A stretch of 64,000 bases of DNA from contig CBDCVR010000015.1 in the NCBI GenBank assembly GCA_965223155.1, positions 987,097 to 1,051,096 on the forward strand, in the 5' to 3' direction. This document shows positions 12,395 through 61,572 of this stretch, piece after piece. The position numbers were made by a program, and so were the translations under genes. How positions within the stretch are numbered: the first letter of the stretch is position 1; each line of letters begins with the position of its first letter. Source of the stretch: Candidatus Multivoradales bacterium (GTDB lineage Bacteria > Acidobacteriota > Thermoanaerobaculia > Multivoradales > JAHEKO01). Below the pieces are notes generated by a model. It saw only the letters and a list, made by a program, of their open reading frames with translations. It was not told the origin of the DNA and made no database searches.

Positions 12395-15300
12395 CTGGCC
12401 GCCGTCGGCGTCGGCGTCGACGAGACGGTCGGAACGTAGCGCCGCCGCAGGCGTAGGACGCCGCCTTCACGCGTGCCGTCGAAGACCTCCAGGAACGGCT
12501 CCGCATAGGGGCTCGTGGCGGCCGGCTCGCCGTTTACGGTTTCGACTTCAAGACGCGGCTCGGGCGCGACCGGACGGGTGAGGAGATGCCCCAAGACACC
12601 CAGGTAGTCCCGAAGGCGGGGGTGATCCGCCTCCGGCTCGATCGAGAGCCGCCGGCCGTTGCGCTCGGACAAGAGCACCCGCTCGGCGCCGTGGAAGACC
12701 AGGTGGGTCGAGGCCAGGCGCTTTGGAGCCAGGTGGCGCAGGCCTTCGAGGCCCAGGCCCGTGGCCGCCGCCGGATCCGCCGCCGAAAGCCAGTAGATCG
12801 CGTCCCGGCGAAGGCCCGCGCGCAACGTCCGCACGGCTTCGTGGGAGGCGAACTGGAGGCCGGCAATGCCCTCGAAGAACTGGCCCGCCACGATCTCGCC
12901 CGAGAGCTCCATGAGACGGAGCGTGCGAAAGAGCCGGCCCCACCGGAGCGGTACGAGCTCCCGCGCCAAGAGCTCTCGAAACAGCACTCCGTAGCGATCC
13001 AGGAGCAAGCGCACGCGGTCCTTGTTGGCTTCCTCCCGGTCCAGAGCGTCGCCCTCGACTCCCGTTGGCGGGTCGAGCGCGTACCACTCGCCCGCATAGA
13101 TCGCCTGCGAGCGCCAGCGGTCCGGACGTTGCCGAAGCGTCGGCCGTCTCCGCCTGCTCTTCTGGTTCCGCTGGCTCTGCTGGCTCTGCTGACCCTGAAG
13201 CGTCTGAGGCCGGCGGCCGGCACCGGCCCGGGTTGCCTGCCGAGACCCGGAAGCAGAATCGCCGGGCAATCGAAAGCGCTGGGCGATTCCCTGGCGCAGC
13301 GCGGCAAAGGTGGTGTTCGACACCCGGCCGCTCCAGGCTTCGCGCCAGAGCGCCGCGGCAACCTCGGAGGACGGCTCGTCGCGCCGGGCCACGATCTCCT
13401 CGAAGCGAAAGCGCCCGGCGGCCGAAGGCAGGACCGTGGCCTCGGAAGCTGGACGGACATCCGTCTCCGAACCGGCAGCGCTACCGGCGGCGGCGGCGGC
13501 ATCGGCGGCATCGGCGGCATCAACGGCGGCGGCCGCGCCGACTTCATCGACTTCAGCCGGCTCGGCCGGCTCGACCAGAAGACCGACCTCTTCGGGAAAG
13601 GCGAAGGTCACGGTCTCGGCTCCGCAACCGAGCCACACCAGGTCCGAGTCCTGAAACAGGCTATCGAGCCACGATGGATAGAAGGTGTCGAGCCGCGCCG
13701 GCAGGATTTCAGTCTCCCAGAGGCGGGCCGCCGCCGGATACCCCAGGAGCCGACCCAGCGCGGTTTGTAGCTCGCGGGAACTGGCGCCACGGGCGGTCAG
13801 TCCCTGGCGCGTCGCCAGAAAGAGCGGCAGGTCGACAAGCGGCCGGGCCTCCAAGCTCGGCCGCCGCCGGGCGCGGTCGATCCGCAGCAGTCGTTCCAAA
13901 TTCTCCGCGTCGGCGATCTCGAGCGTGTCCGTCTCGCGCCGGAACCGGTCGATGACCACGTGACCGTCCTCGACCAGGGTCTCGAGCAGCGCGTCGAGGC
14001 GTTCGGTTTCGAGCCCGAAGCTCGCCCGCAACCGCTCGGCCGGCACCGGACCATAGAAGCGGAGCCATTCGGCCACGATCTCGCCGGCGCCGAGCCCGCC
14101 GTCCGCGGGCGCCGCCGCGACCCTTGCGGCCTCGACCCGTGCGGCCTCCACCCGTGCGGCCTCGTCGCCCGCCAGGGACTCGAGAGCCTCCGGCGGTCCA
14201 AAGGCCGCGACCAGAGCGGGCAAGCGCTCGCGCGCGCACACGACGGGCTCGGACCAACGCGCCCGCACTAGCCGGGTTGCGGCCGGGCCGACCCGATCGT
14301 CGCCTTCCTCCTCGTCCGCTTCAGAGCCGGGGGCGTCGAGGTTCCGGTCGCGCTCGACCGCCGCCGTCAGCGCCAGCCACTCGGACTCGGGCAGCACCCA
14401 CCGCTCCTTGACCCACTCCACCAACTCGACATCGTCGCGGGGCGCATAGCCGGGTTGCGTGCGCTGGAGCTTGCTCTCGAACTCGACCAGCAGGGCCTCC
14501 GGAAACTTCGGTCGCAGCTCGGCCGAGAGCACCAGCTCGCGCAGCCACCCCTTATCGAGCGCGGTGCCCCGGTCCCGCTCGGCCGAGTCGTCCAGATACA
14601 TGAGCCGATTGGTCCGCTTCCAGAGGAGATCCCCTGCGAACGGCGACGGCGCCTCGGTCGCCACCTCGACGACGTCGAGGGTTCCCTGCTCGATCTCGGC
14701 CAAGAATCTCTTGAGCGCCTCGAGCTCGAATTCTTCTTCCAGGCAGGTGCGCCAGGTCTCGACGACGATCGGAAAGTCTCCGAACTTGGCCACCGTGCCC
14801 AGAAGCTGCTTGCCGCGCTCCCGCTGGAGCCAGAGCGGGACCCGGCGCTTCAAGTCCGAGCGCGGCAGCAGCAAGGCCCGGCCGGCGTTCTCGCGGAAGC
14901 GGGCACCGAAGAATCCCGTCGGTTCGAGCGTGGTGCGTAGCATCATCTCGAGGGGCTGCGTCGCCAGGTACTCGAACACCGCCGCTGGTTCGAAGCCATC
15001 GGGCGCCAGCACCAGAAGGCTGTCGTTGTTGGCATCGGCCTCAAGGCTCTGGCCGGACAGAGCGCGGTAGGCAGGAGGCAAGACCAGCGCCAGCGGTCGG
15101 TTGACCCGGCCGCCCCAGCCGGTGTGAAGCACCCAGGCCCGGCGTCCCTCGTCGGTCTCGCGCTCGGCCAGCTTCTCGGCCACCAATCGATGGCGGTGGG
15201 GCAGGCCGTCGGTGGCCAGGCGCTGCTCCTCCAGAAAGCCGACCAGAGCTTCGGCCGCGGCTGCCTCGAAGGCGTGCTCGCCGACCAGGCGTTGGGCCAG

Positions 15301-17157
15301 GTTCCGCCTTCCGTCACGACCGCGAAGCTCGGTATCGGCGCGCTCCAGAAACCGGCCGATGCGCTCGGAAAGATGAACGCTCCGGTTGCGCTCTTCGGCG
15401 CGCCAGAAGGGCGCGAAGGCGGCGCCCTTGGCGACCGGAGACACCAGCACATCGCTGTGGGTGATCTTACGGATGCGCCAGGCCTGGGCGCCGAGGGTGA
15501 ACGTGTCGCCCAGCGAGCGCTCCCATACGAACTCCTCGTCCAGCTCGCCCAGTCTGGCCATCGATTCGTGATGTCGGAGCCGGAAGTAGCCACGGTCCGG
15601 AATCGTGCCGCCAGCGACATAGAGAAGCCGTTCCGAGCCCCGGCGGGCCAGCACCGTACCCTCGAGGCGGTCGAACGCCAGGCGCGGCTCGAGCTCGCGG
15701 ATCCGGCTCTCGGAGTAGCGGCCCGCGAGCATCTCGAGCACCAAATCGAACTGTTTGCGCGGAAGATCCCGATAGGGGTAGCTGGTTCGGATCCGGTCGT
15801 AGAGCTCGTCGACGTTTCGGCTCGTCCCCGCGGTCATCGACAGGATGACCTGGGCCAGGACGTCGAGCGCTCCGCGGACCGGCTCCACCTCTTCGATGTC
15901 GTGGTCCAGGACCGCGCGCGCCACCACTGCCGCATGGATCAGATCCCGACCGAACAAGGGATAGAGCCGGGCGCGGCTGACCTCGCCCACCCGGTGGCCG
16001 GCGCGTCCGACGCGCTGGATGGCCGCCGCGACCGACGGTGGCGTCGCCACCAGCAGGACCTCGTCCAGAGCGCCGATGTCGATTCCCAGCTCGAGCGAGT
16101 TGGTCGCCACGATCGCCTTGAGCCGGCCTTGCTTCAGCCTCTCTTCGACCACGGCCCGGAGCTCACGCGAGAGCGAGCCGTGATGGGAGTAGGCGAGCTC
16201 GGCCGATCCGCCCTCATTCAAGAAGCGGGTAATCTTCTCGGTCGCCCGCCGGCTGTTGGCGAAGAGCAGCGTCGAGCGGTTGGAGCGGATGCGATGCTTG
16301 AAGGCCTCGGTCAGCGACTCCCAGAGGTTTTCGGGAGGTGTCGCGCCCGACCCTTCGTCCCGACCCGGGACGACGTCGACCAGGCCCGCCGGGCGGGACA
16401 CCTCGAGGTCGTACACCTTGCGGGCTTCCGAGCGCACCAGGCGAACGTCGCGGCGGGCGTAGACGGCGTGGCCGGCGGTTCGCTCCAGACGCCAGCCGCC
16501 GACAAAGCGCGCGAGCTCGGCGAGCGGCCGCGCGGTCGCCGACAGCGCCAGGCGCTGGAACTCCCCGGAGAGCTCCACCAGCCGGTCCACCGCGGTGATG
16601 AGATGGGTGCCGCGCTTGCCGCCGGCAATCGCGTGGATCTCGTCCAGGATGACGGTTTCGAGCCCTCCGAAGAGAAGCCGTCCGCGCGGCGAGGTCAGGA
16701 GGATGTTCAAGCTCTCCGGCGTCGTGATGAGAATTTCGGGCGGCCGGCGCAGCATCTTGCGGCGCTCGCTCTGCGGCGTATCGCCGCTGCGGACCCCGAT
16801 CCCGACCGGCCGCGGCTCGAGGCCGGCCTCGGCGAAGCTCGCTTCGAGCTCGGCGAGCGGCTGGCGCAGGTTGCGCTGGATGTCGTTGTTGAGCGCCTTG
16901 AGCGGTGACAGGTAGAGCACCCGGACGTGGCCGTCCTCGGCCGCCGCCGGCCAGGCTCCGGTCAAGAGCCGATCCAATGCCCAGAGAAAGGCGGTCAGGG
17001 TCTTGCCGCTGCCGGTGGGCGCGGACACCAGAACGTGCTCGCCGGCCGCGATCGGCGGCCAGGCCGCCCGCTGAGCATCGGTGGGCTCGCCGAACCGGGC
17101 GGCGAACCAATCGCTGACGACCGGGTTGAAACCGATCGATTCGAGACTAGCCCCCAT
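12391..17157 (-). CDS. lhr: ATP-dependent helicase Lhr (large helicase-related), 1588 aa
   Basis: Walker A SAPTGSGKTLTAF, DEIH box, helicase C motifs, and the long Lhr-type C-terminal extension. The length matches Lhr (~1500 aa). It contains in-frame tandem repeats (QQSQQSQ at 13164-13197; AARVE x3 at 14118-14162). Confidence 0.85.
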   Translation of the reverse strand: MGASLESIGFNPVVSDWFAARFGEPTDAQRAAWPPIAAGEHVLVSAPTGSGKTLTAFLWALDRLLTGAWPAAAEDGHVRVLYLSPLKALNNDIQRNLRQPLAELEASFAEAGLEPRPVGIGVRSGDTPQSERRKMLRRPPEILITTPESLNILLTSPRGRLLFGGLETVILDEIHAIAGGKRGTHLITAVDRLVELSGEFQRLALSATARPLAELARFVGGWRLERTAGHAVYARRDVRLVRSEARKVYDLEVSRPAGLVDVVPGRDEGSGATPPENLWESLTEAFKHRIRSNRSTLLFANSRRATEKITRFLNEGGSAELAYSHHGSLSRELRAVVEERLKQGRLKAIVATNSLELGIDIGALDEVLLVATPPSVAAAIQRVGRAGHRVGEVSRARLYPLFGRDLIHAAVVARAVLDHDIEEVEPVRGALDVLAQVILSMTAGTSRNVDELYDRIRTSYPYRDLPRKQFDLVLEMLAGRYSESRIRELEPRLAFDRLEGTVLARRGSERLLYVAGGTIPDRGYFRLRHHESMARLGELDEEFVWERSLGDTFTLGAQAWRIRKITHSDVLVSPVAKGAAFAPFWRAEERNRSVHLSERIGRFLERADTELRGRDGRRNLAQRLVGEHAFEAAAAEALVGFLEEQRLATDGLPHRHRLVAEKLAERETDEGRRAWVLHTGWGGRVNRPLALVLPPAYRALSGQSLEADANNDSLLVLAPDGFEPAAVFEYLATQPLEMMLRTTLEPTGFFGARFRENAGRALLLPRSDLKRRVPLWLQRERGKQLLGTVAKFGDFPIVVETWRTCLEEEFELEALKRFLAEIEQGTLDVVEVATEAPSPFAGDLLWKRTNRLMYLDDSAERDRGTALDKGWLRELVLSAELRPKFPEALLVEFESKLQRTQPGYAPRDDVELVEWVKERWVLPESEWLALTAAVERDRNLDAPGSEADEEEGDDRVGPAATRLVRARWSEPVVCARERLPALVAAFGPPEALESLAGDEAARVEAARVEAARVAAAPADGGLGAGEIVAEWLRFYGPVPAERLRASFGLETERLDALLETLVEDGHVVIDRFRRETDTLEIADAENLERLLRIDRARRRPSLEARPLVDLPLFLATRQGLTARGASSRELQTALGRLLGYPAAARLWETEILPARLDTFYPSWLDSLFQDSDLVWLGCGAETVTFAFPEEVGLLVEPAEPAEVDEVGAAAAVDAADAADAAAAAGSAAGSETDVRPASEATVLPSAAGRFRFEEIVARRDEPSSEVAAALWREAWSGRVSNTTFAALRQGIAQRFRLPGDSASGSRQATRAGAGRRPQTLQGQQSQQSQRNQKSRRRRPTLRQRPDRWRSQAIYAGEWYALDPPTGVEGDALDREEANKDRVRLLLDRYGVLFRELLARELVPLRWGRLFRTLRLMELSGEIVAGQFFEGIAGLQFASHEAVRTLRAGLRRDAIYWLSAADPAAATGLGLEGLRHLAPKRLASTHLVFHGAERVLLSERNGRRLSIEPEADHPRLRDYLGVLGHLLTRPVAPEPRLEVETVNGEPAATSPYAEPFLEVFDGTREGGVLRLRRRYVPTVSSTPTPTAAS
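13164..13197. repeat. 9-bp tandem repeat (CTGCTGGCT-type), in-frame inside lhr
   Basis: ggttccgctggctctgctggctctgctgaccctg, encoding QQSQQSQ in Lhr. Confidence 0.8.
14118..14162. repeat. 15-bp x3 tandem repeat inside lhr
   Basis: cgacccttgcggcct / cgacccgtgcggcct / ccacccgtgcggcct, encoding AARVEAARVEAARVA. Confidence 0.8.
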
Positions 17158-23963: not shown

Positions 23964-23967
23964 CGAT

Positions 23968-31504: not shown

Positions 31505-32500
31505 GTGTCCGGCAAGGCGGTCTTGGTTTTCAACCCGTTCGCGGGCCGGCACCGCACCGGCGAGTTGTCCCGAACGGTCGCGGCCGAGCTCGACGGGCAA
31601 GGCTTCTCGGTCACCAGCGTACCCACGCGCGGACCCGGCGATGCCACCACGCGCGCTCGGGTCGCGGCCTCGAGCGGCGCCAGCGCGGTTTTCGCTCTGG
31701 GCGGAGACGGAACGCTGCGCGAATGCGCGGCTGGCCTTGCCGGCTCCGAAACCGCGCTCGGATTCCTTCCCGCCGGAACGGTCAACGTCATGGCCTTCGA
31801 GCTGGGCTTGCCGGGGCGGCCACTCGCCGCCGCCCGCGCCCACCGGAGCTCCCGCGCCCGGGCCTTCGACGTCGGCTACGCCGGGGATGAGACCTTTCTC
31901 ATGCAGTGCTCGGCGGGGTTCGACGCCCGGCTCATCGCCGAGCTCCGTTCCGAGGAGAAGCGGCGGCTGGGCCGGCTGGCGGTGCTGCCGGCGACATTGC
32001 GAAGCCTCGCTCGTTACCGGTTTCCGTCGTTCGGGGTCGAGACCGCCTCGGGCCGGAGCTCGGCCACTCTGGCGGTGGTTTCGAACATTCGGCGCTACGG
32101 CGGTCCCTGGAAGATCGCTCCGGCCGCCTCGACCGAAGATGGCGAGCTCGACCTCGTTCTCCACTCGGGATCGGGCCGCCGGGCGATCCTGGCTTTCGCG
32201 CTACGTCTTCTCTTCGGCCGGCACCTCGCGGGACGGCACTGCCGGCTGGAGCGGGTGCGCGAAGCGACGCTTCTTCCCGCGCCGGGCGCGCCGCGGCAGC
32301 TGGACGGCGAGCGCGGCCCGGCCGCGGAACCCCTTCGCGTCACGGTCGCCCGCCGGGCTCTCCGCATGCTGATCCCGGACCGTGCCTCAGCACGCTCGGC
32401 TGCCTCCGCTGGCTCCGCTGGCTCCGATCGCTCCGATCACTCCGCGAACTCAGTAGATTCCGAGACCGGCCCCGGCTCTGTTGGACGAGACTTCACCTAG
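31505..32500 (+). CDS. Diacylglycerol kinase catalytic-domain family lipid kinase (YegS/BmrU-like)
   Basis: GTG start. The ALGGDGTL motif and overall DAGK_cat layout. The C-terminal tail carries an in-frame 9-bp repeat tract (SAASAGSAGSDRSDHS). Confidence 0.7.
   Translation: MSGKAVLVFNPFAGRHRTGELSRTVAAELDGQGFSVTSVPTRGPGDATTRARVAASSGASAVFALGGDGTLRECAAGLAGSETALGFLPAGTVNVMAFELGLPGRPLAAARAHRSSRARAFDVGYAGDETFLMQCSAGFDARLIAELRSEEKRRLGRLAVLPATLRSLARYRFPSFGVETASGRSSATLAVVSNIRRYGGPWKIAPAASTEDGELDLVLHSGSGRRAILAFALRLLFGRHLAGRHCRLERVREATLLPAPGAPRQLDGERGPAAEPLRVTVARRALRMLIPDRASARSAASAGSAGSDRSDHSANSVDSETGPGSVGRDFT
32402..32443. repeat. 9-bp tandem repeat tract (CCGCTGGCT x2 then CCGATCGCT/CCGATCACT) inside the lipid-kinase gene
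   Basis: A 28-bp segment, ggctccgctggctccgatcgctccgatc (32411-32438), is identical to 40141-40168 in an unrelated gene. Confidence 0.85.
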
Positions 32501-37421: not shown

Positions 37422-38395
37422 TGCCGGACGGAGCCAGCCGGCCTCCGGAGCCCCCGCCCGCACCCGAGGCGCCGTCCGGGGCTTCCCCGCAAGCGGAGTC
37501 GCCGGCTCAGACTGCTCCGCTGGCTCCACTGGCTCCGCTGGCTCCAACAGTCGAGCTCGACCACCTCGACACGCTCTGGTTCCAAGTCGGAGGAACGGTC
37601 TGCAACCTGGCCTGCACCCACTGCTTCGTCTCGTGCTCGCCCACCAACCACACCCACGAGTTCCTCACTCTTGCGGCCATCGAGCCCTATCTGGCCGAAG
37701 CGGCCGAGCTGGGCGTGCGCGAGTTCTACTTCACCGGCGGCGAGCCGTTTCTGAACCCCGAGATGGAAGCCATCCTGGAGCGGACTCTCGCGTCCGGTCC
37801 GGCCACGGTCCTGACCAACGGGTTGCTGCTCGATCCCAAGCGCGCCCGGCGCCTGGCCGAGCTCACCGGGCGCTCGCGCTACTCCCTCGACCTGCGCGTC
37901 TCCCTCGACGGGTACTCGGCCGCGGCCAACGATCCCATCCGGGGCGAGGGCAGCTTCGAGCGCATCCTGGCCGGTATCGGCAATCTCGTCGCCGCCGGCC
38001 TCAACCCGGTCATCACGGTCACCGAGGTCCACGACGAGAACGGCTCGGTGGCGGGCAAGGAGCGGTTCGCGGCGCTCTTGGCCGAGCTCGGCGTCGTCAA
38101 GCCCCGGCTCAAGATCTTGCCGGTCTTCCAGATCGGCGCCGAAGCCGAGCGCAGCAGCGCCTACGCGAGCTGGCAGCGCCTGCGCGAGGGCGACGCGCCC
38201 GAGGAGGGCTGGTCGCACCTCCAGTGCTCGGGCTGCCGCACGGTGACCGACCAGGGCGTCTGGGTCTGCCCGATCCTGGTCAACGAACCCGAGGGCAAGA
38301 TGGGCGAGACGCTGACCGACGCTCTGGACGGCTTCGCGCTGGCTCACCCCGCCTGCTGGACCTGTCACGTCTACGGCGTGAGCTGTCGTACCTGA
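37421..38395 (+). CDS. arsS: Arsenosugar biosynthesis radical SAM protein ArsS (TIGR04167-type rSAM with C-terminal Cys-rich domain; Cys variant, not Sec)
   Basis: ATG overlaps the arsM TGA by 1 nt (TGATG). Radical SAM motif CNLACTHCF. C-terminal Cys-rich tail CSGCRTV ... CPILVN ... HPACWTCHVYGVSCRT. Low-complexity APLAPLAPLAP near the N-terminus comes from a 9-bp repeat insertion. Confidence 0.8.
   Translation: MPDGASRPPEPPPAPEAPSGASPQAESPAQTAPLAPLAPLAPTVELDHLDTLWFQVGGTVCNLACTHCFVSCSPTNHTHEFLTLAAIEPYLAEAAELGVREFYFTGGEPFLNPEMEAILERTLASGPATVLTNGLLLDPKRARRLAELTGRSRYSLDLRVSLDGYSAAANDPIRGEGSFERILAGIGNLVAAGLNPVITVTEVHDENGSVAGKERFAALLAELGVVKPRLKILPVFQIGAEAERSSAYASWQRLREGDAPEEGWSHLQCSGCRTVTDQGVWVCPILVNEPEGKMGETLTDALDGFALAHPACWTCHVYGVSCRT
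37514..37545. repeat. 9-bp tandem repeat (CCGCTGGCT / CCACTGGCT / CCGCTGGCT) inside arsS
   Basis: gctccgctggctccactggctccgctggctcc, encoding PLAPLAPLAP. Confidence 0.85.
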
Positions 38396-38455
38396 CCCGC
38401 CCTGATCCGCCCTGACCCGACTAATCCGACTGACCCGCCCGATCCGCCTGAACCC
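38392..38455. repeat. Intergenic array of about seven degenerate 9-10-bp direct repeats (consensus CCTGACCCGC) starting at the arsS stop codon
   Basis: cctgacccgc cctgatccgc cctgacccga ctaatccgac tgacccgccc gatccgcctg aacc. Confidence 0.8.
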
Positions 38456-38474: not shown

Positions 38475-39515
38475 GTGCCCGACCGCAAACCCCCAGATCT
38501 CTCACAGAGCCCATCCGATCGCGAACGGCGGGCGCGCGCTCGAAAGGCCCAGCACGAGGCGTTCTCCGCGCACAAGGGACTTGCCACCTGGGGAGAAGAC
38601 CTGGTGCCGCTCGAGCGCTTCCGCGCCGCGACCCGAGCGGCCGGCCAGACCCTCTCGGCCGAGGCCCGGCGCACCGCGCGGGCCGAGTTTCTGGCGCCGC
38701 ATCCCGACCCGACGCCGGTCGAGGGTCCCTTCTCCAGGATCCTGGTCTTTGGCGGGGTCTACAGCAACCATCTCGCCCTGGCCGCGGTTCTGGAGACCGC
38801 CAAGAGCCTGGGGGCCGAGGCCGTCTACTGCCTCGGCGACTTGGGCGGCTTCGGGCCCTCGCCCGAGAAGGTCTGGCCGCTTCTCACTTCCGGCGGGGTC
38901 CGCACGCTTCAGGGCAACTACGAGCAGTCTCTGGCGAACGGTCACGAGGACTGCAACTGCGGCTACACCGACCCGCGAGACAACCACTTCGCCGAGCTCT
39001 CCTACCGCTACACCGAGCGCAACTCGTCGGACGCCTTCAAGAAATGGATGGGGCACCTGCCGGCCCGGCGGCGAGTCCGCCTCGGCAAGCACGAGCTTCT
39101 TCTCGTTCACGGTTCGCCCAGACGGGTCAATGAGTTCCTGTTCGACTCCACGACGCCTGACGCGTTTCTGGAGGTTGTTCTCGACCAGGAGCGCGCCGAC
39201 GCGATTCTCTGCACCCATACCGGGCTCCACTGGCAGCGCGCTTTGCCATCCGGGCGCCAGGTCGCGAACGTCGGGGTCATCGGCCGGCCCGCCAACGACG
39301 GCAACACTTCGGTCTGGTACGCGCTCCTGGAAGCCCGCCGAAACGGCGAGCTCGCCATCCGCCTCGAGCCCCTTGCCTACAACCACGAGGCTCTCGCCGA
39401 AGAGATGCGCCGCGAACGGCTGCCCGAGGAGTTCGTCGCCACCATCGAGACCGGCTACTGGACCACCTGTCTCGAGATCCTGCCCGCGCGCGAGCGGGCC
39501 CTCTCGAAGTTCTAG
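38475..39515 (+). CDS. Metallophosphoesterase (calcineurin-like) family protein with an ~85-aa basic N-terminal extension
   Basis: GTG start. ILVFGGVYSN ... CLGDLGGFGP ... GNYE are phosphoesterase motifs I-III; LLVHGSP is the GH-type motif. The start is uncertain. Confidence 0.65.
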   Translation: MPDRKPPDLSQSPSDRERRARARKAQHEAFSAHKGLATWGEDLVPLERFRAATRAAGQTLSAEARRTARAEFLAPHPDPTPVEGPFSRILVFGGVYSNHLALAAVLETAKSLGAEAVYCLGDLGGFGPSPEKVWPLLTSGGVRTLQGNYEQSLANGHEDCNCGYTDPRDNHFAELSYRYTERNSSDAFKKWMGHLPARRRVRLGKHELLLVHGSPRRVNEFLFDSTTPDAFLEVVLDQERADAILCTHTGLHWQRALPSGRQVANVGVIGRPANDGNTSVWYALLEARRNGELAIRLEPLAYNHEALAEEMRRERLPEEFVATIETGYWTTCLEILPARERALSKF

Positions 39516-39551: not shown

Positions 39552-40865
39552 ATGACCAAATCGGGACACATCGCCATCCTGGGCGCCGGGCCGACCGGGC
39601 TCGAGGCGGCGCTCGCCGCCGCCGACGCCGGCTCTTCCTTTACCTTGTACGAGGCCGGGGAGGGCGTCGGCGCCAACATCCGCGACTGGGGTCATGTACG
39701 GCTCTTCTCGCCCTGGGCCTACGACGTCTCACCCCGGGCGCGGGCGGCCCTGACCCGCGCCGGGGTGCCCGTTCCCGAGGCTACCGATCCGTCCTGCCCG
39801 ACCGGCGCCGAGCTCGTCGAGCGAGTGCTGGCGCCCGTCGCCGCCCTGCCGGCCATCGCCGACCGCCTCCAGACCGGAACCCGCGTCCTCGAAGTCGGGC
39901 GCCAGGGTCTGCTCAAGCACGAGGCCATCGCCTCGGCCGCGCGCGCCGAGCGGCCTTTCCGGCTGCTGGTGGAGGATACGACCGGAACCCAGCGCATCGA
40001 CCGGGCCGACGTGGTCCTGGACTGCACCGGCTCCTACGACCGGCCCAACGCCCTGGGCGACGGCGGCATTGCCGCGCCGGGGGAAGACGCTCTCGGGGAC
40101 CGGATCGAGCGACGCATCCCGGATCTCGAGCGCGACACCCGGCTCCGCTGGCTCCGATCGCTCCGATCGCTCCGATCGCTCGGACGGCGCGTCCTGGTCG
40201 TCGGCGCCGGCCACTCGGCGATGACCGCGGTCGTCGCCCTGGCCGAGGCCGCGGCCGCCGCCGCGATCGAGCCGGACGCGCCCCAGTCCGAGATCCTGTG
40301 GGCGATTCGGGGTGCCGAGCCCGCCTGGCGCATCGACCCGGACGATCCCCTGCCCGAACGCTCGGGCCTGGTCGCCAAGGCGCGAGCGCTCGCCGCGGGC
40401 GGCTCGCCCCACGTCCGCACGCGGTACGGTGTCGTCGTCGACGCCCTGGCCGATGATGGGGACGGCGTCCGGGTCACCCTGCGGGCGACTCACGCCAGCC
40501 CAGCCGCTGGCGGCAACGGATCAGACCCTTCGCCGCAAGACGAGGTCGTGGTCGATCGCATTCTGGCCCTTACCGGCAGCGTCGGCGACCACCGGATCTA
40601 CCGCCAGCTCCAGGTCCACGAGTGCTACGCCACGTCGGGACCCATGAAGCTCGCCGCCGCGCTCCTGGCCGAGGCCGGAGCCGGTGGTGACGGCGCGGCC
40701 GACTGCCTGGCCCAGGAAAGCCACGGCGTCGAGACCCTGACCAATCCGGAGCCCGGCTTCTTCATCCTGGGCGCCAAGTCCTATGGCCGCAACTCGTCGT
40801 TTCTGATGCGCCTCGGCTGGCAGCAGGTTGACGAGGTCTTCGCGGCCCTCGCCACCGAGAGGTAG
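39552..40865 (+). CDS. FAD/NAD(P)-binding oxidoreductase (flavin monooxygenase-like)
   Basis: AAGGAG RBS. N-terminal IAILGAGPTGLEAA (GxGxxG) and a second VLVVGAGHSAMTA dinucleotide motif. Contains the in-frame LRSLRSLRSL repeat. Confidence 0.7.
   Translation: MTKSGHIAILGAGPTGLEAALAAADAGSSFTLYEAGEGVGANIRDWGHVRLFSPWAYDVSPRARAALTRAGVPVPEATDPSCPTGAELVERVLAPVAALPAIADRLQTGTRVLEVGRQGLLKHEAIASAARAERPFRLLVEDTTGTQRIDRADVVLDCTGSYDRPNALGDGGIAAPGEDALGDRIERRIPDLERDTRLRWLRSLRSLRSLGRRVLVVGAGHSAMTAVVALAEAAAAAAIEPDAPQSEILWAIRGAEPAWRIDPDDPLPERSGLVAKARALAAGGSPHVRTRYGVVVDALADDGDGVRVTLRATHASPAAGGNGSDPSPQDEVVVDRILALTGSVGDHRIYRQLQVHECYATSGPMKLAAALLAEAGAGGDGAADCLAQESHGVETLTNPEPGFFILGAKSYGRNSSFLMRLGWQQVDEVFAALATER
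40141..40183. repeat. 9-bp tandem repeat tract (CCGCTGGCT then CCGATCGCT x3) inside the oxidoreductase gene
   Basis: ggctccgctggctccgatcgctccgatcgctccgatcgctcgg. The first 28 bp are identical to 32411-32438. Confidence 0.85.
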
Positions 40866-44757: not shown

Positions 44758-44776
44758 GGAGCCAGCCGAGCCAGCC
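44758..44776. repeat. Intergenic copy of the GAGCCAGC (reverse-complement GCTGGCTC) repeat, two units
   Basis: ggagccagccgagccagcc, between the CPBP protease and dipeptidase genes. Confidence 0.6.
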
Positions 44777-44813
44777 CCCGAGGCCGTGCTCTCTCGACAA
44801 TGCCCCCGGCTTG

Positions 44814-45509
44814 TCAGGCCCGAGCCCGGCGCGCCAGCGCGGCGATGCGAGACAGACCCACTGCGTTGACGCCGACGTGGGCGAGAACCGGCGCCAGCAG
44901 ATTTCCCCGCCAGGCCATGAGGCCGCCCAGGACCGCACCGGCGACCAGGGCGAAGAGTGTCCACAAGCGGTACTCCCGGCCGGGTCCCACGTGCAAGGCG
45001 GCGAACAGGAGGGTCGCCACCGGCAGGCCCCAGGCGCCTTGTACCGCTCCCCGGAAAAAGAGCTCTTCGGCAAAGCCCGACAGGAGCGCCAGACTCACCA
45101 CCTCGGCCCATTCCAGGGGCCCGACGAGCTCGGCCATCGAACGTTCCAGGCGCCGGGCCGGGGCGTAGAGCCGCGCGGTCAGCCGCCACAGACCCAAGAG
45201 CGCGGCCGCCGCCCCCAGGCCGGCCGCCACGTCCACCGCCCAGGCCTCCGGATCAACGAAAAGAGCCGCTCCGATCCGTCCGTGCCGGGAACCCAGCCAG
45301 ACGATGGCGGCCACCGCCAGCACCAGGTACAGGACCGCTGACCAGGTCAGGAAACCCGTCCCGCCGACTCCTTGTGGTCCGGTCGGCGGCTTCGGAGCTG
45401 GCCCCGTCTCTGGAGCCTCCCGGGTTTCCACCGGCTCCGCCGGCTCGCTCGTGGCGTCCTGCTCCGCGCCTTCCGGAGACGGCGGCTCGGTTCCGGTCTC
45501 GTGACGCAA
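44814..45509 (-). CDS. CPBP-family (CAAX) intramembrane metalloprotease
   Basis: EELFFRG motif and a second His motif (FAALHVGP); multiple TMs. Low-complexity Pro/Glu-rich N-terminus. Confidence 0.75.
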   Translation of the reverse strand: MRHETGTEPPSPEGAEQDATSEPAEPVETREAPETGPAPKPPTGPQGVGGTGFLTWSAVLYLVLAVAAIVWLGSRHGRIGAALFVDPEAWAVDVAAGLGAAAALLGLWRLTARLYAPARRLERSMAELVGPLEWAEVVSLALLSGFAEELFFRGAVQGAWGLPVATLLFAALHVGPGREYRLWTLFALVAGAVLGGLMAWRGNLLAPVLAHVGVNAVGLSRIAALARRARA

Positions 45510-50827: not shown

Positions 50828-52054
50828 TCAAAGAGCCGCCAGAAGGCCACTTTCGAGGCACCAGGAGGCGGTATTTCGGAGTCGCTTCGCGACCTTCCGA
50901 TGAGCCGAGGAGACCAGGACTTGAGGCATCTCGGAAAAGAGACTCCAGGCGATTTCGAGACGCGATCGGTCCAACTCGGCATCGAGGTCGTCGAGCAGAA
51001 CCACGGGCACCCGGCCCGTCGCCGCCAGAACCCGGGCGCGGGCGGCGGTGAGCGCCAGGCCAAAGAGCTTGCGCTCTCCGGCCGAGGCCGCCTTGCCGAT
51101 GTCGGTCTCGACCCAGCGTAGAACCAACCGGTCGAGATGCGGCCCGACCAGAATGCGGCGCCGATCGACCTCCCGCGACCGGGCGCGGGCCAAGGCGTCG
51201 CGCACCTCGTCCGCCGATTCCGGTACCTTCACCGCGGGCGGCTGCTCCGGTCCGGAGTCGTCTTGGCTCCCTTGCGGGCGGCCCGTCTGCAAGTTGGACC
51301 TCAGGTTGGGTCGGTACTCGAGAGCGACCGCCGGCAGCGGCAGCTCGTGGTCCGAGATCACCTGCCGAAGCGCCTGGTCGAGACGGGTGACGTAGTCCTG
51401 GCGAAGCCGGATGAGGGCAAAGCCGGAGATCGCCAGAAGATCGTTCCAGGCCTCGAGAGAGCGAGCACCGTCAGGACCCTTTCGCCCCGAGCCAGCAAAG
51501 CTGTTAGAGCCAGCAGAGCCGGCCAATCCCCTCTTCAGAAGCTCTCGCTTCTCGGCCAGCACTCGCCGGTAGTCGCGCAGGTGCTCGACCGCTAGCGGGT
51601 TCTCTCCCACCACGCCCTGATCCAGGAGCCGGCGCCTGAGCGCCGGATCACCATCCAGAAGGTCCCGGTCCGCGGCCGACCAGGAAAGCGCCGGTAGGAA
51701 CTCCAGATAGCGGGCCACGGAGACGTTCTTGCCGTCGGCCTGCCGTCGCCTCGTGGTTCCGGCGTAGCCGGCGGCAAGCTCCGCCCCGGAGGTTCGGCCA
51801 TGGACCCAGAACTCGCTCGCCCCCCAACGCCGGCAGTCGGACGGGCGCGCCGTCCGGAAGCTCTTGGTCGTGGCCAGAAAGTAGACGGCTTCGAGGACCG
51901 AGGTCTTGCCGGCGCCGTTGTCTCCGACGATGAGCTGCGGGCCAGGCGGAATGGACCAGCGCAGGCTCTCGAAACAGCGGAAGTCGCTGAGCGTCAGACG
52001 CTCCAGGAGGCGAGGGAACTCTTCGGCGTTGTCCGCGCCGCTTCTAACCTGCAC
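50828..52054 (-). CDS. recF: DNA replication and repair protein RecF
   Basis: Walker A GDNGAGKTSVLEA; ABC-signature-like and Walker B in the C-terminal third. Contains an in-frame repeat (AGSAGSNSFAGSG). The N-terminal start is uncertain. Confidence 0.85.
   Translation of the reverse strand: MQVRSGADNAEEFPRLLERLTLSDFRCFESLRWSIPPGPQLIVGDNGAGKTSVLEAVYFLATTKSFRTARPSDCRRWGASEFWVHGRTSGAELAAGYAGTTRRRQADGKNVSVARYLEFLPALSWSAADRDLLDGDPALRRRLLDQGVVGENPLAVEHLRDYRRVLAEKRELLKRGLAGSAGSNSFAGSGRKGPDGARSLEAWNDLLAISGFALIRLRQDYVTRLDQALRQVISDHELPLPAVALEYRPNLRSNLQTGRPQGSQDDSGPEQPPAVKVPESADEVRDALARARSREVDRRRILVGPHLDRLVLRWVETDIGKAASAGERKLFGLALTAARARVLAATGRVPVVLLDDLDAELDRSRLEIAWSLFSEMPQVLVSSAHRKVAKRLRNTASWCLESGLLAAL
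51489..51526. repeat. GAGCCAGC-type 9-bp repeat tract (reverse orientation) inside recF
   Basis: gagccagcaaagctgttagagccagcagagccggccaa. Confidence 0.75.
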
Positions 52055-57509: not shown

Positions 57510-58076
57510 TCAGGAAACCGGAAAGCGTTCGAGGATTGCCGACTCGGCGCGGCCCAGCCAACGGTCGCGCTCGTTCGGGTCGAGACGCACAACGGCGAGA
57601 TTTCGCTCCCGGATCTCGGCCAGGAGCCTTGTGTCGACCGCGGTCTGGAAGTCGGGATCGGTCGCCCGCACGCCGTCGGCCGAGGGCGGCTCGACGATGG
57701 GCACGTGGACGAGCAGATCGTAGGATGCCATCCAGGCGCCGACCACCGGCTCGAGCGAAGCCTGAGGGCCGTCGGCCAGGAGAAGGTAGACGTAATTGTC
57801 CAGAAGACTGCGATCGCACAGGACCGCGGGATACCGGGCCGAAGCAGAGAGCTCCTCGGCGATCTGGGTATGAAGAATCCAGGACTGAGCTTCGAGGCTG
57901 GTCTGCTCGTTGATGGGCAAGGGACAGCGGCGGGCGACTTCGTGGACGACCTCGAGGGCGACGTCGCGCGCCTTGAGCCGGGCCGCGAGGCCGTAGCAGA
58001 GGGTGGTCTTGCCGACCCCGTGGCTGCCGATGAAGGCGACCTTGAACCCCTGGCTGTCAGGCGCGGCTATGGGCAT
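57510..58076 (-). CDS. AAA_28 / NadR-like P-loop NTPase
   Basis: Walker A FIGSHGVGKTTL; 188 aa; overall similarity to the nucleoside-kinase-like ATPase domain. Its start codon lies 5 nt inside the divergent DUF4157 gene. Confidence 0.6.
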   Translation of the reverse strand: MPIAAPDSQGFKVAFIGSHGVGKTTLCYGLAARLKARDVALEVVHEVARRCPLPINEQTSLEAQSWILHTQIAEELSASARYPAVLCDRSLLDNYVYLLLADGPQASLEPVVGAWMASYDLLVHVPIVEPPSADGVRATDPDFQTAVDTRLLAEIRERNLAVVRLDPNERDRWLGRAESAILERFPVS

Positions 58077-58614
58077 CGCGAGATTCTATGCCGCTGGGTG
58101 GGTGATGCTGGCTGAGACCGCGTTTCGCCCCCGCTACCGGCTGGGCGTGGTGGGCGCCTGGGTGCGGCTCGCGGAGATCCTCCTAGGAACCGACCTGGGC
58201 CGGGTGCGGCTGGAAGGCGGCACGGTGGCCCGGGCGCTCGCACGCCTCTGCGGCGCCCAGGCGGTGACCCTGGGCTCGCGGGTGGTCTTTGCCCGGGAGG
58301 CCTGGCGGGACCTCCAGGCGGGCCGCGACCGAGGCCTGGCCCTGGTGTTTCACGAGCTCGCCCACGTGGCTCAGATCCGGCGCCTGGGCCGATTCGGCCT
58401 GGCGCGGTTTCTGGGGCGCTATCTGGGCGAGTACTTGGCCGGTCGAGTCCGGGGGCTGAACCATGGCGCCGCCTACCGGGCGATTTCGTTCGAGCGCGAG
58501 GCGCATGCGCTCGAGGCCCGGGCTCTCTGCTGGATCGAAGCGGGAGTGCTGACACCCGCGGTGGGCCGCGGGTCGGCCGCCGTCCGGCCTGGAGGCGAAG
58601 GACGCCAGAGCTAG
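58069..58614 (+). CDS. DUF4157 (zincin-like HExxH) domain protein
   Basis: ATG at 58069 (the ORF track starts at GTG 58003, which overlaps the ATPase gene). LVFHELAHVAQ is an HExxH motif within a DUF4157-type context. Its stop overlaps the recR stop. Confidence 0.55.
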   Translation: MGIARFYAAGWVMLAETAFRPRYRLGVVGAWVRLAEILLGTDLGRVRLEGGTVARALARLCGAQAVTLGSRVVFAREAWRDLQAGRDRGLALVFHELAHVAQIRRLGRFGLARFLGRYLGEYLAGRVRGLNHGAAYRAISFEREAHALEARALCWIEAGVLTPAVGRGSAAVRPGGEGRQS

Positions 58615-59219: not shown

Positions 59220-59266
59220 GCTCTAGGCTTTGAGCCGTCGCCGCGATGTCGCGACAAGGCGGGCCG

Positions 59267-59560: not shown

Positions 59561-59631
59561 CGTCGGTCTCGCTCGTTTGCAGTCTAAGGAAAGGGGCCGC
59601 GCGTCAGAGCAAAGCGGCGGCCGTGGACTCT

Positions 59632-61572
59632 TCAGTCGGTCTCGGTTGGCTCGACGGATTCGATCGAGCCGCCGAAGATATCCAAGACGGCTTGGACCCG
59701 GGGGTCGTCGACCCGGGGCGGCTGGGCGTCCTGGAATCCGGTCTGAACGCCGCCGGCACCGCCTTCGCTCGCTTCGGGGGTTCCCGCCGCCGGGGCGTCG
59801 ATGAGGCGCCAGGCGGAACCGGCACCCCAAGTCGCGGCCAGCGCGGCTTCGAGAATCTTCTTGTTGGAGGTTCGGGCCAGCCGGTCCCGCAGCCAGGTGT
59901 CCCCGGCCTCGACCGCGATCTCGAGGGTTCCGTCGCGGAAGGCGAGCGAGCGGGCGCCGCTCAAGTGGGCCGCGAGCGCCTGGCGTTCCTTGCTCACCCG
60001 AGCCACGAAGCCTTCGACGTTGGCGCCGAAACCGTTGCCCTCGTCTGCGGGCCCGCTCGCGCTCCCGGGTGCCCCGTCGGTCTTCGCCGATGCCGGAGCC
60101 GATGCCGGAGCCGCCACCGCAGCTTCTTCTCCGAGAGGCGGAGGCGTGTCGGCCGCGGGTGCGGCTCGGTCGCTCGCCAGCTCCGGGCCACGGTCCGTTG
60201 TCGACTCGGCCGCCCGGGGCGGTTCGGCCTCCTCCGTCTCTTGGGCCCGCTTGGTGGGCTTGGCCGGCTCTGCTGGCTCAGCTGGCTTCGCTGGCTTCGA
60301 TAACCCGGCTGGCTCAGCTGGCTCCGATGCCCCGGGCGGTGGCGCCGGGCGCGCCTTCCGGGCCGGCCTCGGGGCGGCGGCGGCGCGCATCTTCGAGCCT
60401 TCGCCGCTTCCAGGGCTCTTGGCCGCCGGGTCGGCTTCGAGCAGAGGACCTGAGCCGCCGCTCAGAAGCTCCTCGATCGCGACCAGCCGAGGCAACTCGG
60501 CGGCGCGCAGCCAGGCGATCTCGAGGGCCAGCGAGGCGCTCTCGCTCCGACGCACCGACTCCTCGCTTTGGAGGAGCAAGTAGATGGCGCGCAGGAGGTT
60601 CTCGTAGCCGACCCCCTGGGCCAGCTTGCGCAGGGCTTCGGCCGCTTCGCCCGTGGTCTCGAGCTGGGAGGTGTCCGTGCCCAGCGCCAGACGCAGGGCC
60701 ATGCGGCAGTACGCCAGGAACTCGGAGAAGACGAAGCGCGGATCCCAGCCTTCGGTCTCGATGCGGCTCACGACCTCCGAAAGGTGCGCGCCGTCGCCCT
60801 TGGCGATCGCTTCCAGAACCCCGTGAAAGATTTCCGGGTCGAGCCCGCCCAGGAGCCGGGCCGCGTCGTCGTCTTCAATCGAGCCCGAGCCGAAGGTGGC
60901 GAGCTGATCCAAGAGCGCCACGCTGTCGCGGACCGAGCCGTCGCCGGCGCGGGCGATGATCCGGAGCGCCGCTGGCCCCACGGCGATCTCCTCGGATCCG
61001 GCCAGGAAGGCCAGATGCTCGGCCAGCTCGTCGAGCGCGACCCGGCGAAAGCGAAAATCCTGGCACCGGGACAAGAGCGTCGCCGGCACCGCGTCGGCCT
61101 CGGTGGTGGCGAAGATGAAGACCAGGTGGTCGGGGGGCTCCTCGACGATCTTGAGCAGGGCGTCGAAGGCCTGGCGCGAGAGGCGGTGGATCTCGTCCAG
61201 GATCACGACCTTGTAGCGGTCCCGCGCCGGGCCGTACTTGAGGCTCTCGTTCAGCTCGCGCACCTGCTCGACCTTTGAGTAGGTGGCGGCGTCGTGCTCG
61301 ATGACGTCGAAATCCGAACCGCCGGTGATCTCGCGGCAGGTCGCGCAGTCGTTACAGGGATTCGCCGCCGGGCCGTTTTCGCAGTTGAGCGCCTTGGCCA
61401 GGATGCGCGCGACGCTGGTCTTGCCGACGCCGCGGATGCCCGAGAAGAGATACGCCTGGGCGATGCGGCCATCCGAAAGCGCGTTCTGGAGCGCCCTCAC
61501 GACCGGAGCCTGCCCGACGACGCTGTCGAAATCTTGCGGCCGCCACTTGCGGGCCAGGACCTGGTAGCTCAT
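59632..61572 (-). CDS. dnaX: DNA polymerase III subunits gamma/tau
   Basis: AAA+ Walker A GIRGVGKTSVARILAKALNC, zinc module, tau-specific C-terminal region. Contains a long in-frame repeat tract (PAEPAKP type). Confidence 0.9.
   Translation of the reverse strand: MSYQVLARKWRPQDFDSVVGQAPVVRALQNALSDGRIAQAYLFSGIRGVGKTSVARILAKALNCENGPAANPCNDCATCREITGGSDFDVIEHDAATYSKVEQVRELNESLKYGPARDRYKVVILDEIHRLSRQAFDALLKIVEEPPDHLVFIFATTEADAVPATLLSRCQDFRFRRVALDELAEHLAFLAGSEEIAVGPAALRIIARAGDGSVRDSVALLDQLATFGSGSIEDDDAARLLGGLDPEIFHGVLEAIAKGDGAHLSEVVSRIETEGWDPRFVFSEFLAYCRMALRLALGTDTSQLETTGEAAEALRKLAQGVGYENLLRAIYLLLQSEESVRRSESASLALEIAWLRAAELPRLVAIEELLSGGSGPLLEADPAAKSPGSGEGSKMRAAAAPRPARKARPAPPPGASEPAEPAGLSKPAKPAEPAEPAKPTKRAQETEEAEPPRAAESTTDRGPELASDRAAPAADTPPPLGEEAAVAAPASAPASAKTDGAPGSASGPADEGNGFGANVEGFVARVSKERQALAAHLSGARSLAFRDGTLEIAVEAGDTWLRDRLARTSNKKILEAALAATWGAGSAWRLIDAPAAGTPEASEGGAGGVQTGFQDAQPPRVDDPRVQAVLDIFGGSIESVEPTETD
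60264..60327. repeat. GCTGGCT-type 9-bp tandem repeat tract (about 6 units) inside dnaX
   Basis: ggctctgctggctcagctggcttcgctggcttcgataacccggctggctcagctggctccg. Confidence 0.85.

Follow-up and report, generated by a model that had tools for sequence, protein, structure and literature searches.

A dispersed family of 9-nt tandem mini-repeats in unrelated genes of a Thermoanaerobaculia-like Acidobacteriota lineage

The cyanobacterial STRR sequences consist of heptanucleotide (7 nt) units that form dispersed, mainly intergenic tandem arrays, and their units are common to related genera. Selfish DNA is also found in frame within unrelated, even essential genes, at tolerated surface-exposed positions, as described for the Rickettsia palindromic elements (RPE), which are single palindromic elements of ~100-150 bp, and for other MITEs. 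Besides, the mycobacterial PGRS (CGGCGGCAA) and MPTR repeats are GC-rich tandem units of 9-10 bp, initially noticed as dispersed repetitive DNA, that are translated into protein, inside the paralogous PE/PPE gene families and in a single reading frame. In Burkholderia pseudomallei, tandem arrays are reported to have been duplicated at other loci as the motif only, the duplicated arrays being mostly of 6-7 bp motifs, >200 bp long and intergenic (PMC1853098). In SPDIR, ectopic single strands anneal and integrate at microhomologies, replacing or inserting short patches, and such events are rare, their sizes and sequences varying widely (bioRxiv 10.1101/2023.11.22.568220).

The window analysed here, that is, the whole 64-kb stretch of DNA, carries a family of tandem repeats built from a unit A (GCTGGCTCY), a unit B (GATCGCTCC) and an edge variant (SCCGGCTCY), with the core GCTCCG common to all units of the A/B family. 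This is the largest direct-repeat family of the window (D1), comprising eight clear arrays and one weak two-unit site; seven unrelated genes host arrays and one array lies in an intergenic spacer, with both strands represented. The units are arranged head to tail, with 2-8 units per site according to TRF and an in-register scan, and array lengths vary from 18 to 72 nt. The sequence GGCTCNGCTGGCTC was observed nine times in the window, whereas 100 dinucleotide-preserving shuffles gave an expectation of 0.02, and six arrays of at least three units (tolerating at most two mismatches per unit) were found compared to none in 50 shuffles. No unseeded arrays of the family were present in 417 kb of control loci. 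Weak period-9 tandem repeats occur at 24-30 per 100 kb in the window, its relatives and unrelated controls alike. There is a tendency for arrays to begin with an SCCGGCTCY edge unit, followed by A units and then B units, and to end in GATCAC or GATCGA, although this simple polarity is broken at L146, L163, L188 and L192, where A and B alternate. Several arrays have degenerate edges, which consist of partial or degenerate units with no distinct flanking duplication visible, the ancestral empty sites being too diverged to reconstruct. No inverted-repeat arms were found within or flanking the arrays of the window, and their single-strand folding was not significant (DNA folding z-scores of -1.2 to +0.95).

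When compared to the described systems, the A/B family resembles STRR in having the same short unit in tandem at many loci and units common to related taxa, whereas the 7-nt STRR unit cannot sit in frame and the 9-nt unit has nearly all of its copies in ORFs, in several frames; STRR proper was ruled out by the unit length, the coding location of seven of the eight clear arrays and the acidobacterial host. The high GC content of B. pseudomallei is shared by the genome studied here, but the A/B arrays measure 18-72 bp, with units of 9 bp, are hosted by housekeeping genes and are found again in further species of the clade. Like RPE and other MITEs, the arrays are found in unrelated coding genes at tolerated positions with the frame kept, yet they are tandem 9-mers of variable number lacking inverted repeats or a significant fold, and a MITE- or RPE-type element was ruled out on inverted repeats, palindromic fold and defined length. 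They share with PGRS and MPTR the short GC-rich tandem units read as protein, but their hosts are unrelated single-copy housekeeping genes and several frames are used. A structural repeat domain (collagen-like GXY or a Pro-rich linker family) was discarded given the five frames, the unrelated Pfam hosts and the intergenic copy. The 9-nt units abut directly, without CRISPR spacers, and a CRISPR array, with repeats of ~24-48 nt and unique spacers, was also ruled out.

The tracts listed in the first-pass annotation are real, each lying within a few bases of where it had been placed, and its count of at least six unrelated genes rises to seven with a clear array that it had not listed, at 1760..1795 on the minus strand (CCTGGCTCC CCCGGCTCC GCTGGCTCC GCTGACTGC). 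This array is in sense orientation, reads ALAPPAPLAPLTA (LAP frame) and lies in an uncharacterised signal-peptide protein, encoded by a minus-strand ORF (1..~2450) that runs off the window start. In lhr (12391-17157, minus strand), the array at 13161..13197 on the plus strand (TCTGGTTCC GCTGGCTCT GCTGGCTCT GCTGACCCT) is antisense to the gene and reads QGQQSQQSQRNQ, at a variable linker directly ahead of the segment aligning to M. smegmatis Lhr from residue 1260. A weak two-unit variant, GCCGGCTCG GCCGGCTCG, at 13556..13573 on the plus strand, also missing from the earlier listing, is antisense to lhr, reads EPAEPA and is only tentatively assigned to the family.

The gene of the YegS/DAGK-type lipid kinase (31505-32500, plus strand) carries the array GCTGCCTCC A A B GATCACTCC at 32399..32443 on the same strand, which reads SAASAGSAGSDRSDHS and begins a C-terminal tail of ~39 aa; degenerate S-x-x units flank it on both sides, at about 32383-32470. 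The radical SAM array at 37501..37545 (plus strand; GCCGGCTCA GACTGCTCC GCTGGCTCC ACTGGCTCC GCTGGCTCC) reads APLAPLAPLAP in a Pro/Ala-rich N-terminal extension and is coding, since the true start of the gene is ATG 37421, which overlaps the stop of an ArsM-like gene, and its end is 38395; the name arsS given to this gene is unsupported at equivalog level (TIGR04167 gives 54 bits, the cutoff being 300). In the FAD/NAD(P)-binding flavoprotein gene (39552-40865, plus strand), the array CCCGGCTCC A B B GATCGCTCG at 40138..40182 on the plus strand reads RLRWLRSLRSLRSLG and forms a low-confidence loop just ahead of the second Rossmann strand (pLDDT <50 at residues 196-199 and 204-211). The sole non-coding member in the window, GGCTGGCTC GGCTGGCTC C at 44758..44776 on the minus strand, has two units and, as annotated before, is intergenic, 38 nt 3' of the stop of an Rce1-like gene (44814-44816, minus strand) and upstream of the start of an M20 peptidase gene (44609).

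The tract in recF (50828-52054, minus strand) does belong to the family, as a degenerate member: GCCGGCTCT GCTGGCTCT AACAGCTTT GCTGGCTC, at 51489..51526 on the minus strand, sense in the gene and reading LAGSAGSNSFAGS. The longest array of the window, with eight units, is at 60263..60334 on the plus strand, antisense to dnaX (59632-61572, minus strand), and thus reaches about 60334, beyond the end first recorded for it; it consists of four A-type units, GATAACCCG, two A-type units and GATGCCCCG, reads EPAEPAGLSKPAKPAEPAEPAKP and occupies the tau linker after domain III.

Altogether, translation of the arrays falls in five of the six possible frames (LAP, AGS/DRS, WLR/SLR, antisense EPA and antisense QQS), consistent with the earlier remark that different frames and both strands are used. 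Rare codons occur throughout, namely GCT (8.4% of Ala), CCA (5.4% of Pro) and CGA (6.8% of Arg in this genome), and the host Pfam families are mutually unrelated. Pfam domain boundaries, the gap in the Lhr alignment and the flavoprotein pLDDT <50 show that the arrays are confined to segments tolerating additions (loops, inter-domain linkers, N- and C-terminal tails) or lie between genes. All genic arrays leave long ORFs intact and, as had been noted, array length is always a multiple of 3, but this is a trivial outcome of the 9-nt unit; 78% of the 9-mers of the window are stop-free in all six frames once tandemised and, therefore, ORF preservation is no special property of these arrays. The suggested preference for coding regions is not shown either, as seven genic arrays out of eight is about what such a gene-dense window gives, and a hotspot motif is unsupported, single unit copies being mildly over-represented without strand polarity. 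When all genomes were pooled, ten of the 12 genic arrays ran in the sense direction (two-sided binomial p = 0.039), and seven of these ten encode P-[LIM]-A. Variants in other species are often synonymous or conservative in this frame (CTG/CTC, GCT/GCG, CCG/CCA, Leu/Ile/Met).

The flavoprotein tract is absent in 16 homologues, relative to which the window protein has 10 additional aa, and the recF array peptide is absent at the site in 11 of 11 aligned homologues (one with a short unrelated PAG) and from the Thermus and Deinococcus RecF structures. The tracts are also missing from the syntenic DnaX and RecF of L201, and DnaX has 646 aa in the window compared to 554-559 aa in syntenic relatives. 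Among the best 150 homologues of the lipid kinase, which are mostly of ~290-310 aa, with most ending at the array start and few being longer, nearly all lack the array tail. Moreover, no A/B arrays were found in 105 kb of five syntenic relatives. These comparisons show the arrays to be lineage-specific additions to otherwise conserved genes, and the lack of counterparts in homologues of four host genes and in the syntenic relatives agrees with the earlier view that they are not ancient conserved peptides.

The description of the repeat as genome-specific proved wrong. The A-B 18-mer had 66 genome matches, four of them in a tandem-array context, all in Thermoanaerobaculia/Acidobacteriota MAGs and in non-orthologous genes, and metagenomes yielded arrays at three further distinct loci on four contigs. 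The hosts elsewhere include an FprA-like reductase, an RDD protein, a Ser/Thr kinase, PhzF and ribosomal S6; exact matches to window arrays reach 33-37 nt, and two separate metagenomes (L194 and L197) have the PhzF array in identical form. Because the same units form arrays in other genes of related MAGs and contigs, the family is evidently a clade-level feature of a Thermoanaerobaculia-like Acidobacteriota lineage. The exact A-B 18-mer occurs once per whole genome in the other array-bearing MAGs compared to twice in the 64-kb window, so array dynamics differ strongly between lineages.

Within the window, the 28-mer GGCTCCGCTGGCTCCGATCGCTCCGATC is identical at 32411-32438 (lipid kinase) and 40141-40168 (flavoprotein), as first reported, the 20-mer TTGGCCGGCTCTGCTGGCTC is exactly common to the recF and dnaX arrays, and an exact 19-mer is common to the 1760 and flavoprotein arrays. 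The A-B junction GCTGGCTCCGAT is present at three loci, and the exact 19-28-mers span this composite junction. Together with the rare codons and the five frames, these matches bear out the proposal of one dispersed DNA-level family rather than independent microsatellites, and the arrays have evidently been copied between loci as DNA, regardless of strand and reading frame. Likewise, an independent coding microsatellite or VNTR was rejected: tandem units are present, but the 19-28-mers and the A-B junction are common to several loci and the unit is not of local origin.

The flavoprotein gene is informative about how an array may arise. Its orthologues read ...GAA TGG GCG GGN CGC and the window gene reads ...CGG CTC CGC TGG CTC CGA TCG (x3) CTC GGA CGG, placing the invariant Trp codon (TGG) inside an array-derived patch with family sequence on both sides. 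As this codon lies within the patch and the inserted B units are unlike the native flank of the orthologues, the array points to a templated patch replacement and probably not to a local duplication, with TGG common to the native site and unit A and the orthologues too diverged to define either junction. At 54-82% identity, the orthologues are likewise too diverged to rebuild ancestral junctions or microhomologies. A patch spanning the conserved Trp codon fits the short-patch replacement of SPDIR, as do patches identical to ectopic sequence of the window (the kinase/flavoprotein 28-mer, the recF/dnaX 20-mer and the 1760/flavoprotein 19-mer); SPDIR, however, is not known to propagate a single repeat family, and the sense bias of the genic arrays is not predicted by integration of this type.

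We regard it as moderately probable that the A/B tracts are one DNA-level mini-satellite family, seeded by ectopic copying guided by microhomology, resized by slippage and kept only where the protein can accommodate it. A new site would arise when a short stretch of some existing array is transferred to an ectopic position by short-patch illegitimate recombination or SPDIR-type template switching, with microhomology of a few bases as the guide. Replication slippage would then alter how many A and B units each site contains, and short-tract gene conversion between arrays may keep the units alike. Selection on frameshifts or stop codons would never act on the arrays, given a 9-nt unit without stops in any of the six frames, and only their position in the protein would be filtered.

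An origin by independent slippage in each gene, with units converging by chance or through the compositional bias of 68% GC, could draw on the abundance of weak period-9 repeats in high-GC DNA, including unrelated controls, and on the degenerate edges of several arrays, typical of evolution in place. Nevertheless, it cannot explain the exact 19-28-mers with the two-unit junction shared between loci, which already largely refute it, nor does it fit the excess of GGCTCNGCTGGCTC, the lack of unseeded family arrays in the controls and the syntenic relatives, or the family sequence flanking the flavoprotein Trp codon on both sides, and we consider it very improbable. Convergent selection for flexible Pro/Ala/Ser/Gly linkers, made alike through codon bias, seems even harder to credit: the frequent P-[LIM]-A reading and its synonymous or conservative variants are in its favor, but the same DNA is read in five frames/orientations with rare GCT, CCA and CGA codons, one array is intergenic, and LRSLRSLRS beside a Rossmann strand is implausible as a selected linker. 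An artefact of assembly or sequencing (adapter or chimeric sequence, for instance), in favor of which nothing was found, can be practically dismissed, since long ORFs are intact across all genic arrays and independent MAGs and metagenomes, produced by different projects and with different assemblers, contain these same arrays, including the identical PhzF arrays; the resemblance of GCTCCGATC to Illumina adapter ends is only loose.

Two further explanations invoke dedicated enzymes. A templated-addition system, in which a conserved template (for instance a master DNA copy or, in telomerase-like fashion, a small RNA that a reverse transcriptase copies) writes A/B units at breaks or nicks, stuttering on each unit, would account for the same units and A-B junction in different genes and species, with exact matches of 33-37 nt, for the tendency of arrays to run from the edge unit through A and B to a GATCAC or GATCGA end, and for the sense-strand bias. 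We hold it to be unlikely, as the window has no reverse transcriptase, transposase, integrase or IS genes, Rfam gives only the SRP RNA and two tRNAs there, no single-copy template-like locus was seen, the alternating arrays go against a simple polarity and the five syntenic relatives are array-free. Several IS families generate a 9-bp target duplication, equal in length to the unit, and the arrays could be footprints of a transposase or nuclease making sequence-specific 9-bp staggered cuts, with repeated insertion and excision, or cutting and fill-in, tandemly duplicating a preferred target, for which the core GCTCCG in all units also speaks. This origin appears still less likely, given flavoprotein B units unlike the orthologue sequence and thus no local target duplication, two distinct units in fixed junctions common to several loci, the lack of IS or transposase genes and the fact that no array in the window is interrupted by an element.

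Under the favored reading of ectopic copying and slippage, the arrays would most likely be functionless in themselves and the low-complexity protein segments would be a by-product. Nonetheless, the array-bearing species have housekeeping proteins only about 50-60% identical to those of the window, and the persistence of both units and of the A-B junction across them would be hard to achieve by neutral copying and slippage, a hint that a conserved template or sequence-specific enzyme is involved. Taken together, these results indicate that some process spreads a specific mini-repeat through the coding sequence of members of this clade.

The in-register scan of the window for runs of 9-mers with at most two mismatches to unit A (GCTGGCTCC) or unit B (GATCGCTCC) identified tandem arrays that are read in sense within an uncharacterised signal-peptide protein (1760-1795, minus strand; LAPPAPLAPL), the lipid kinase (32399-32443; SAGSAGSDRSDHS), the radical SAM protein (37501-37545; APLAPLAPLAP), and the flavoprotein (40138-40182; RLRWLRSLRSLRSL), and in antisense within lhr (13161-13187; QQSQQSQ) and dnaX (60263-60298; EPAEPA...PAKPAEPAEPAKP). 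Further sites comprised a degenerate array read in sense within recF (51489-51526, minus strand; LAGSAGSNSFAGS), two units in a non-coding intergenic spacer, giving no peptide (44758-44776, minus strand), and a weak two-unit variant at 13556-13573. All the tracts listed in the first-pass annotation were recovered, including the 28-mer that is identical at 32411 and 40141, and its observation that they lie in different frames and on both strands agrees with our finding that one DNA unit is used in five of the six possible readings across the window arrays. The host frames are indeed kept, as had been claimed, but this is automatic with a unit of 9 nt and does not represent a special trait. Stop-free units were likewise rejected as a special adaptation, given that 78% of the window 9-mers are stop-free in all frames. 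The rest of the window seldom uses the array codons (GCT accounts for 8.4% of Ala, CCA for 5.4% of Pro, and CGA for 6.8% of Arg), and their consistent use within the arrays indicates that the shared entity is the DNA and not a selected peptide.

The A/B family is the largest direct-repeat family of the window, where GGCTCNGCTGGCTC occurs nine times against 0.02 expected, and no A/B arrays were found in shuffled sequence. A general excess of period-9 repeats was rejected as an explanation, since low-scoring period-9 TRF hits were equally dense in unrelated high-GC DNA. Only a few single copies of GCTGGCTC exist, and they fall on both strands, which led us to reject a Chi-like, uptake-sequence-like or polar hotspot motif; with no polarity of these single copies around the origin seen in the window, the alternative of a recombination or slippage hotspot motif, raised in the first reading, found no support.

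The arrays constitute one family at the DNA level, and copying between loci has occurred. The recF and dnaX arrays have 20 nt in common (TTGGCCGGCTCTGCTGGCTC), the 1760 and flavoprotein arrays share 19 nt (CCCGGCTCCGCTGGCTCCG), and the A-B junction GCTGGCTCCGAT is present at three loci in the window. Two sub-variants can be told apart: the lhr, recF, and dnaX arrays carry GCTGGCTCT, and the other five carry GCTGGCTCC. The longest two matches join arrays that lie 7.7 and 8.8 kb apart, which, in a very small sample, may hint at a proximity effect on array matching. At the flavoprotein site, the orthologue DNA reads GAA TGG GCG GGN CGC, and the window reads CGG CTC CGC TGG CTC CGA TCG CTC CGA TCG CTC CGA TCG CTC GGA CGG, so that the invariant TGG is flanked by family sequence on both sides and the inserted units do not resemble the native sequence beside it. 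Judging from the aligned DNA, this event looks like a templated patch replacement in which unit A gave the Trp codon, rather than a local duplication.

Moreover, the arrays are lineage-specific gains that persist only at tolerant positions of their host proteins. The flavoprotein has 10 additional residues beside the invariant Trp when compared to 16 homologues, and its structural model shows pLDDT below 50 at residues 196-199 and 204-211, directly ahead of a confident Rossmann strand (212-217). The RecF array peptide is absent at the site in all 11 aligned homologues, one of which has a short unrelated PAG, and is also missing from the Thermus and Deinococcus proteins. DnaX, at 646 aa, is longer than in syntenic relatives (554-559 aa) and has the array in the linker after domain III, while the Lhr array lies within a 160-aa segment that could not be aligned to Lhr of M. 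smegmatis and that of the radical SAM protein within a Pro/Ala-rich N-terminal extension. The lipid kinase array starts where most homologues end (mostly at about 295-305 aa) and opens a 39-aa tail; at 32443-32500 it may have been written over the ancestral stop codon or shifted it, lengthening the ORF by ~39 aa. No A/B arrays were detected in 105 kb from five syntenic relatives (L201 and L203-L206) with the same gene order around the origin, of which L201 shows 54-82% protein identity to the window.

Repeats and insertions of other kinds were also observed in these regions. The recF gene carries a second lineage-specific insertion outside the A/B family (LRSNLQTGRPQGSQDDSG..QPPAV; 51230-51304, aa 251-275), which is missing in most RecF homologues. 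The lhr linker contains four in-frame copies of CGGCGGCAT within a CGG-rich run (13485-13537) and 3.4 in-frame copies of the 15-mer GCCTCGACCCGTGCG (14114-14164), and therefore gathers several unrelated arrays. Between the radical SAM gene, which ends at 38395, and the next gene, starting at 38475, an intergenic array of ~6 copies of 9-10-bp units (CCTGACCCG / CCCGATCCG; 38391-38451) belongs to a different unit family from A/B. In the A/B-free relative L204, two related intergenic tandem repeats with units of 35-36 nt (1562-1683 and 3032-3119) may represent a different dispersed repeat family.

The window itself has a GC content of ~68% and a GC skew that switches near 52-55 kb, and it carries the gene set of the replication origin (dnaA-dnaN-recF-gyrB-gyrA). 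Its other genes are ordinary housekeeping genes, namely lhr, RNase E/G, rodA, PBP2, mreBC, surA-like, ruvAB, the YegS-type lipid kinase, fpg/nei, an ArsM-like methyltransferase with the adjoining radical SAM gene, mutY, recR, ybaB, and dnaX, together with RNA genes for SRP RNA and two tRNA-Ser. The nearest database proteins share 50-62% identity and come from Thermoanaerobaculia/Acidobacteriota MAGs. The "ars" naming of the genes at 36261-38395 is uncertain, since the methyltransferase reached 333 bits, against a cutoff of 500, with the model for arsinothricin ArsM and the radical SAM protein 54 bits with that for ArsS (cutoff 300), its best match, the Rv1681 family, being likewise below cutoff. 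The plus-strand ORF at 44811-45341 is a shadow of the real minus-strand gene (44814-~45400), which encodes an Rce1-like/CPBP protease, and the order gyrA, Rce1-like, M20 peptidase is syntenic with the relatives. Between an AAA_28 gene and recR, the plus strand at 58003-58614 encodes a small eCIS_core (PF13699) protein, and relative L203 has a homologue in the corresponding position. The tRNA-Ser genes (62279-62369 and 62749-62838; anticodons GGA and CGA) have an identical 3' part, and the spacer separating them contains a 39-nt sequence twice, at 97% identity (62382-62420 and 62533-62571).

The scan of 185,579 species genomes with GCTGGCTCCGATCGCTCC returned 66 matches, most of which (62) were single, non-repetitive, spread over many phyla, and at about chance level. 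The remaining four were tandem arrays of A and B units, all in Thermoanaerobaculia/Acidobacteriota MAGs, located in an FprA-like reductase, an RDD-family protein, the linker of a Ser/Thr kinase, and a site upstream of ychF. Three more loci came from JGI metagenomes. One is in a PhzF-family protein, where the array is identical in two of the metagenomes, another is on a short contig, and the third lies in the C-terminal tail of ribosomal protein S6, where it is read as DRS/AGS. The repeats are thus not genome-specific, contrary to the initial proposal. Exact matches between window and foreign arrays reached 33-37 nt, as between the window kinase and the reductase of foreign locus L143, which includes the variant unit GATCACTCC, although these loci were picked by an 18- or 21-mer and identity is informative only beyond the seed. 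The exact A-B 18-mer occurs once per array-bearing MAG genome and twice in the 64-kb window, so that the source lineage may be unusually array-rich; none of the foreign arrays had a second one within its surrounding 8-kb locus. The L143 reductase also has an N-terminal (PQDR)x4 derived from a 12-nt tandem array (3185-3330). A viral origin was rejected, as the IMG/VR scans yielded only chance-level singles, collagen-like phage genes, or no match, and a search for a long "master" array at the protein level, using a synthetic (PLAPIA)n query, gave three insignificant matches.

Seeding of the arrays would have proceeded by ectopic, microhomology-guided patch copying, a process described as SPDIR (bioRxiv 10.1101/2023.11.22.568220). 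Slippage would afterwards alter the number of units, a step that fits the kinase, radical SAM, and dnaX arrays, which are degenerate at the edges and homogeneous in the centre, as well as the very homogeneous flavoprotein array, which is presumably young. Arrays of at least ~27 nt could additionally swap sequence by ordinary short-tract conversion, a limit based on the minimal recombination substrate size. A staggered-cut origin with target duplication is disfavoured by the flavoprotein junction, and convergence at the peptide level by the frames and codons used. DNA secondary structure was rejected as a driver, because array folds were not more stable than shuffles.

The patch-copying and slippage model leaves unaccounted for the conservation of units A and B and of the A-B junction across deeply diverged species, and also the presence of GCTGGCTCC on the coding strand in 10 of the 12 genic arrays counted in the window, L143, and the other foreign loci L146, L149, L192, and L197 (two-sided binomial p = 0.039). 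The commonest frame among genic arrays is P-[LIM]-A, and the sense-strand bias could reflect peptide selection or a transcription-linked mechanism. Both observations keep in play a dedicated templated-addition system, which would account for the same units and junction in unrelated genes and distant species, mostly on the sense strand, and which might possibly rely on a telomerase-like enzyme, either a reverse transcriptase or a polymerase, that copies a short conserved template where the DNA is broken. No direct evidence for this alternative was found, and we consider it very improbable that Thermoanaerobaculia-like Acidobacteriota carry a sequence-specific system dedicated to writing GCTGGCTCC/GATCGCTCC repeats into chromosomal DNA. 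Mobile-element genes (transposase or integrase) and genes for a reverse transcriptase are absent from the window, and no RNA template candidates were seen within it.

Cyanobacterial STRR heptamers are a known family of dispersed short tandem repeats, and Rickettsia palindromic elements (RPEs) are known to colonise unrelated genes in frame with repeat DNA. In B. pseudomallei, tandem arrays have been duplicated "motif only" (PMC1853098). The A/B family resembles STRR and the B. pseudomallei arrays in consisting of dispersed short tandem repeats, and RPEs in lying in frame within unrelated genes. In the literature searched, no 9-bp family was described that unites the two properties, dispersed tandem arrays and in-frame colonisation of genes, and is shared across a bacterial class, and neither the repeat strings nor any in-frame repeat family of 9 bp in Acidobacteria turned up. 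For annotators, odd peptides such as LRSLRSLRS in conserved enzymes can be genuine DNA-level insertions and not errors, and the arrays could provide a marker set for strain typing in this uncultured clade. The conservation of the units across species raises the question of whether ectopic templated repair suffices to maintain the family or whether it takes a dedicated template or enzyme. If copying by ectopic patches holds, the arrays would be a clean natural case in which repeat DNA, selfish or a by-product, spreads through the coding sequence of bacteria, with a defined 9-bp family copied in any frame into the essential genes recF, dnaX, and lhr and a relative's ribosomal protein S6, where the copied units would create new low-complexity loops, linkers, and tails, making repeat copying a route to new disordered protein segments.
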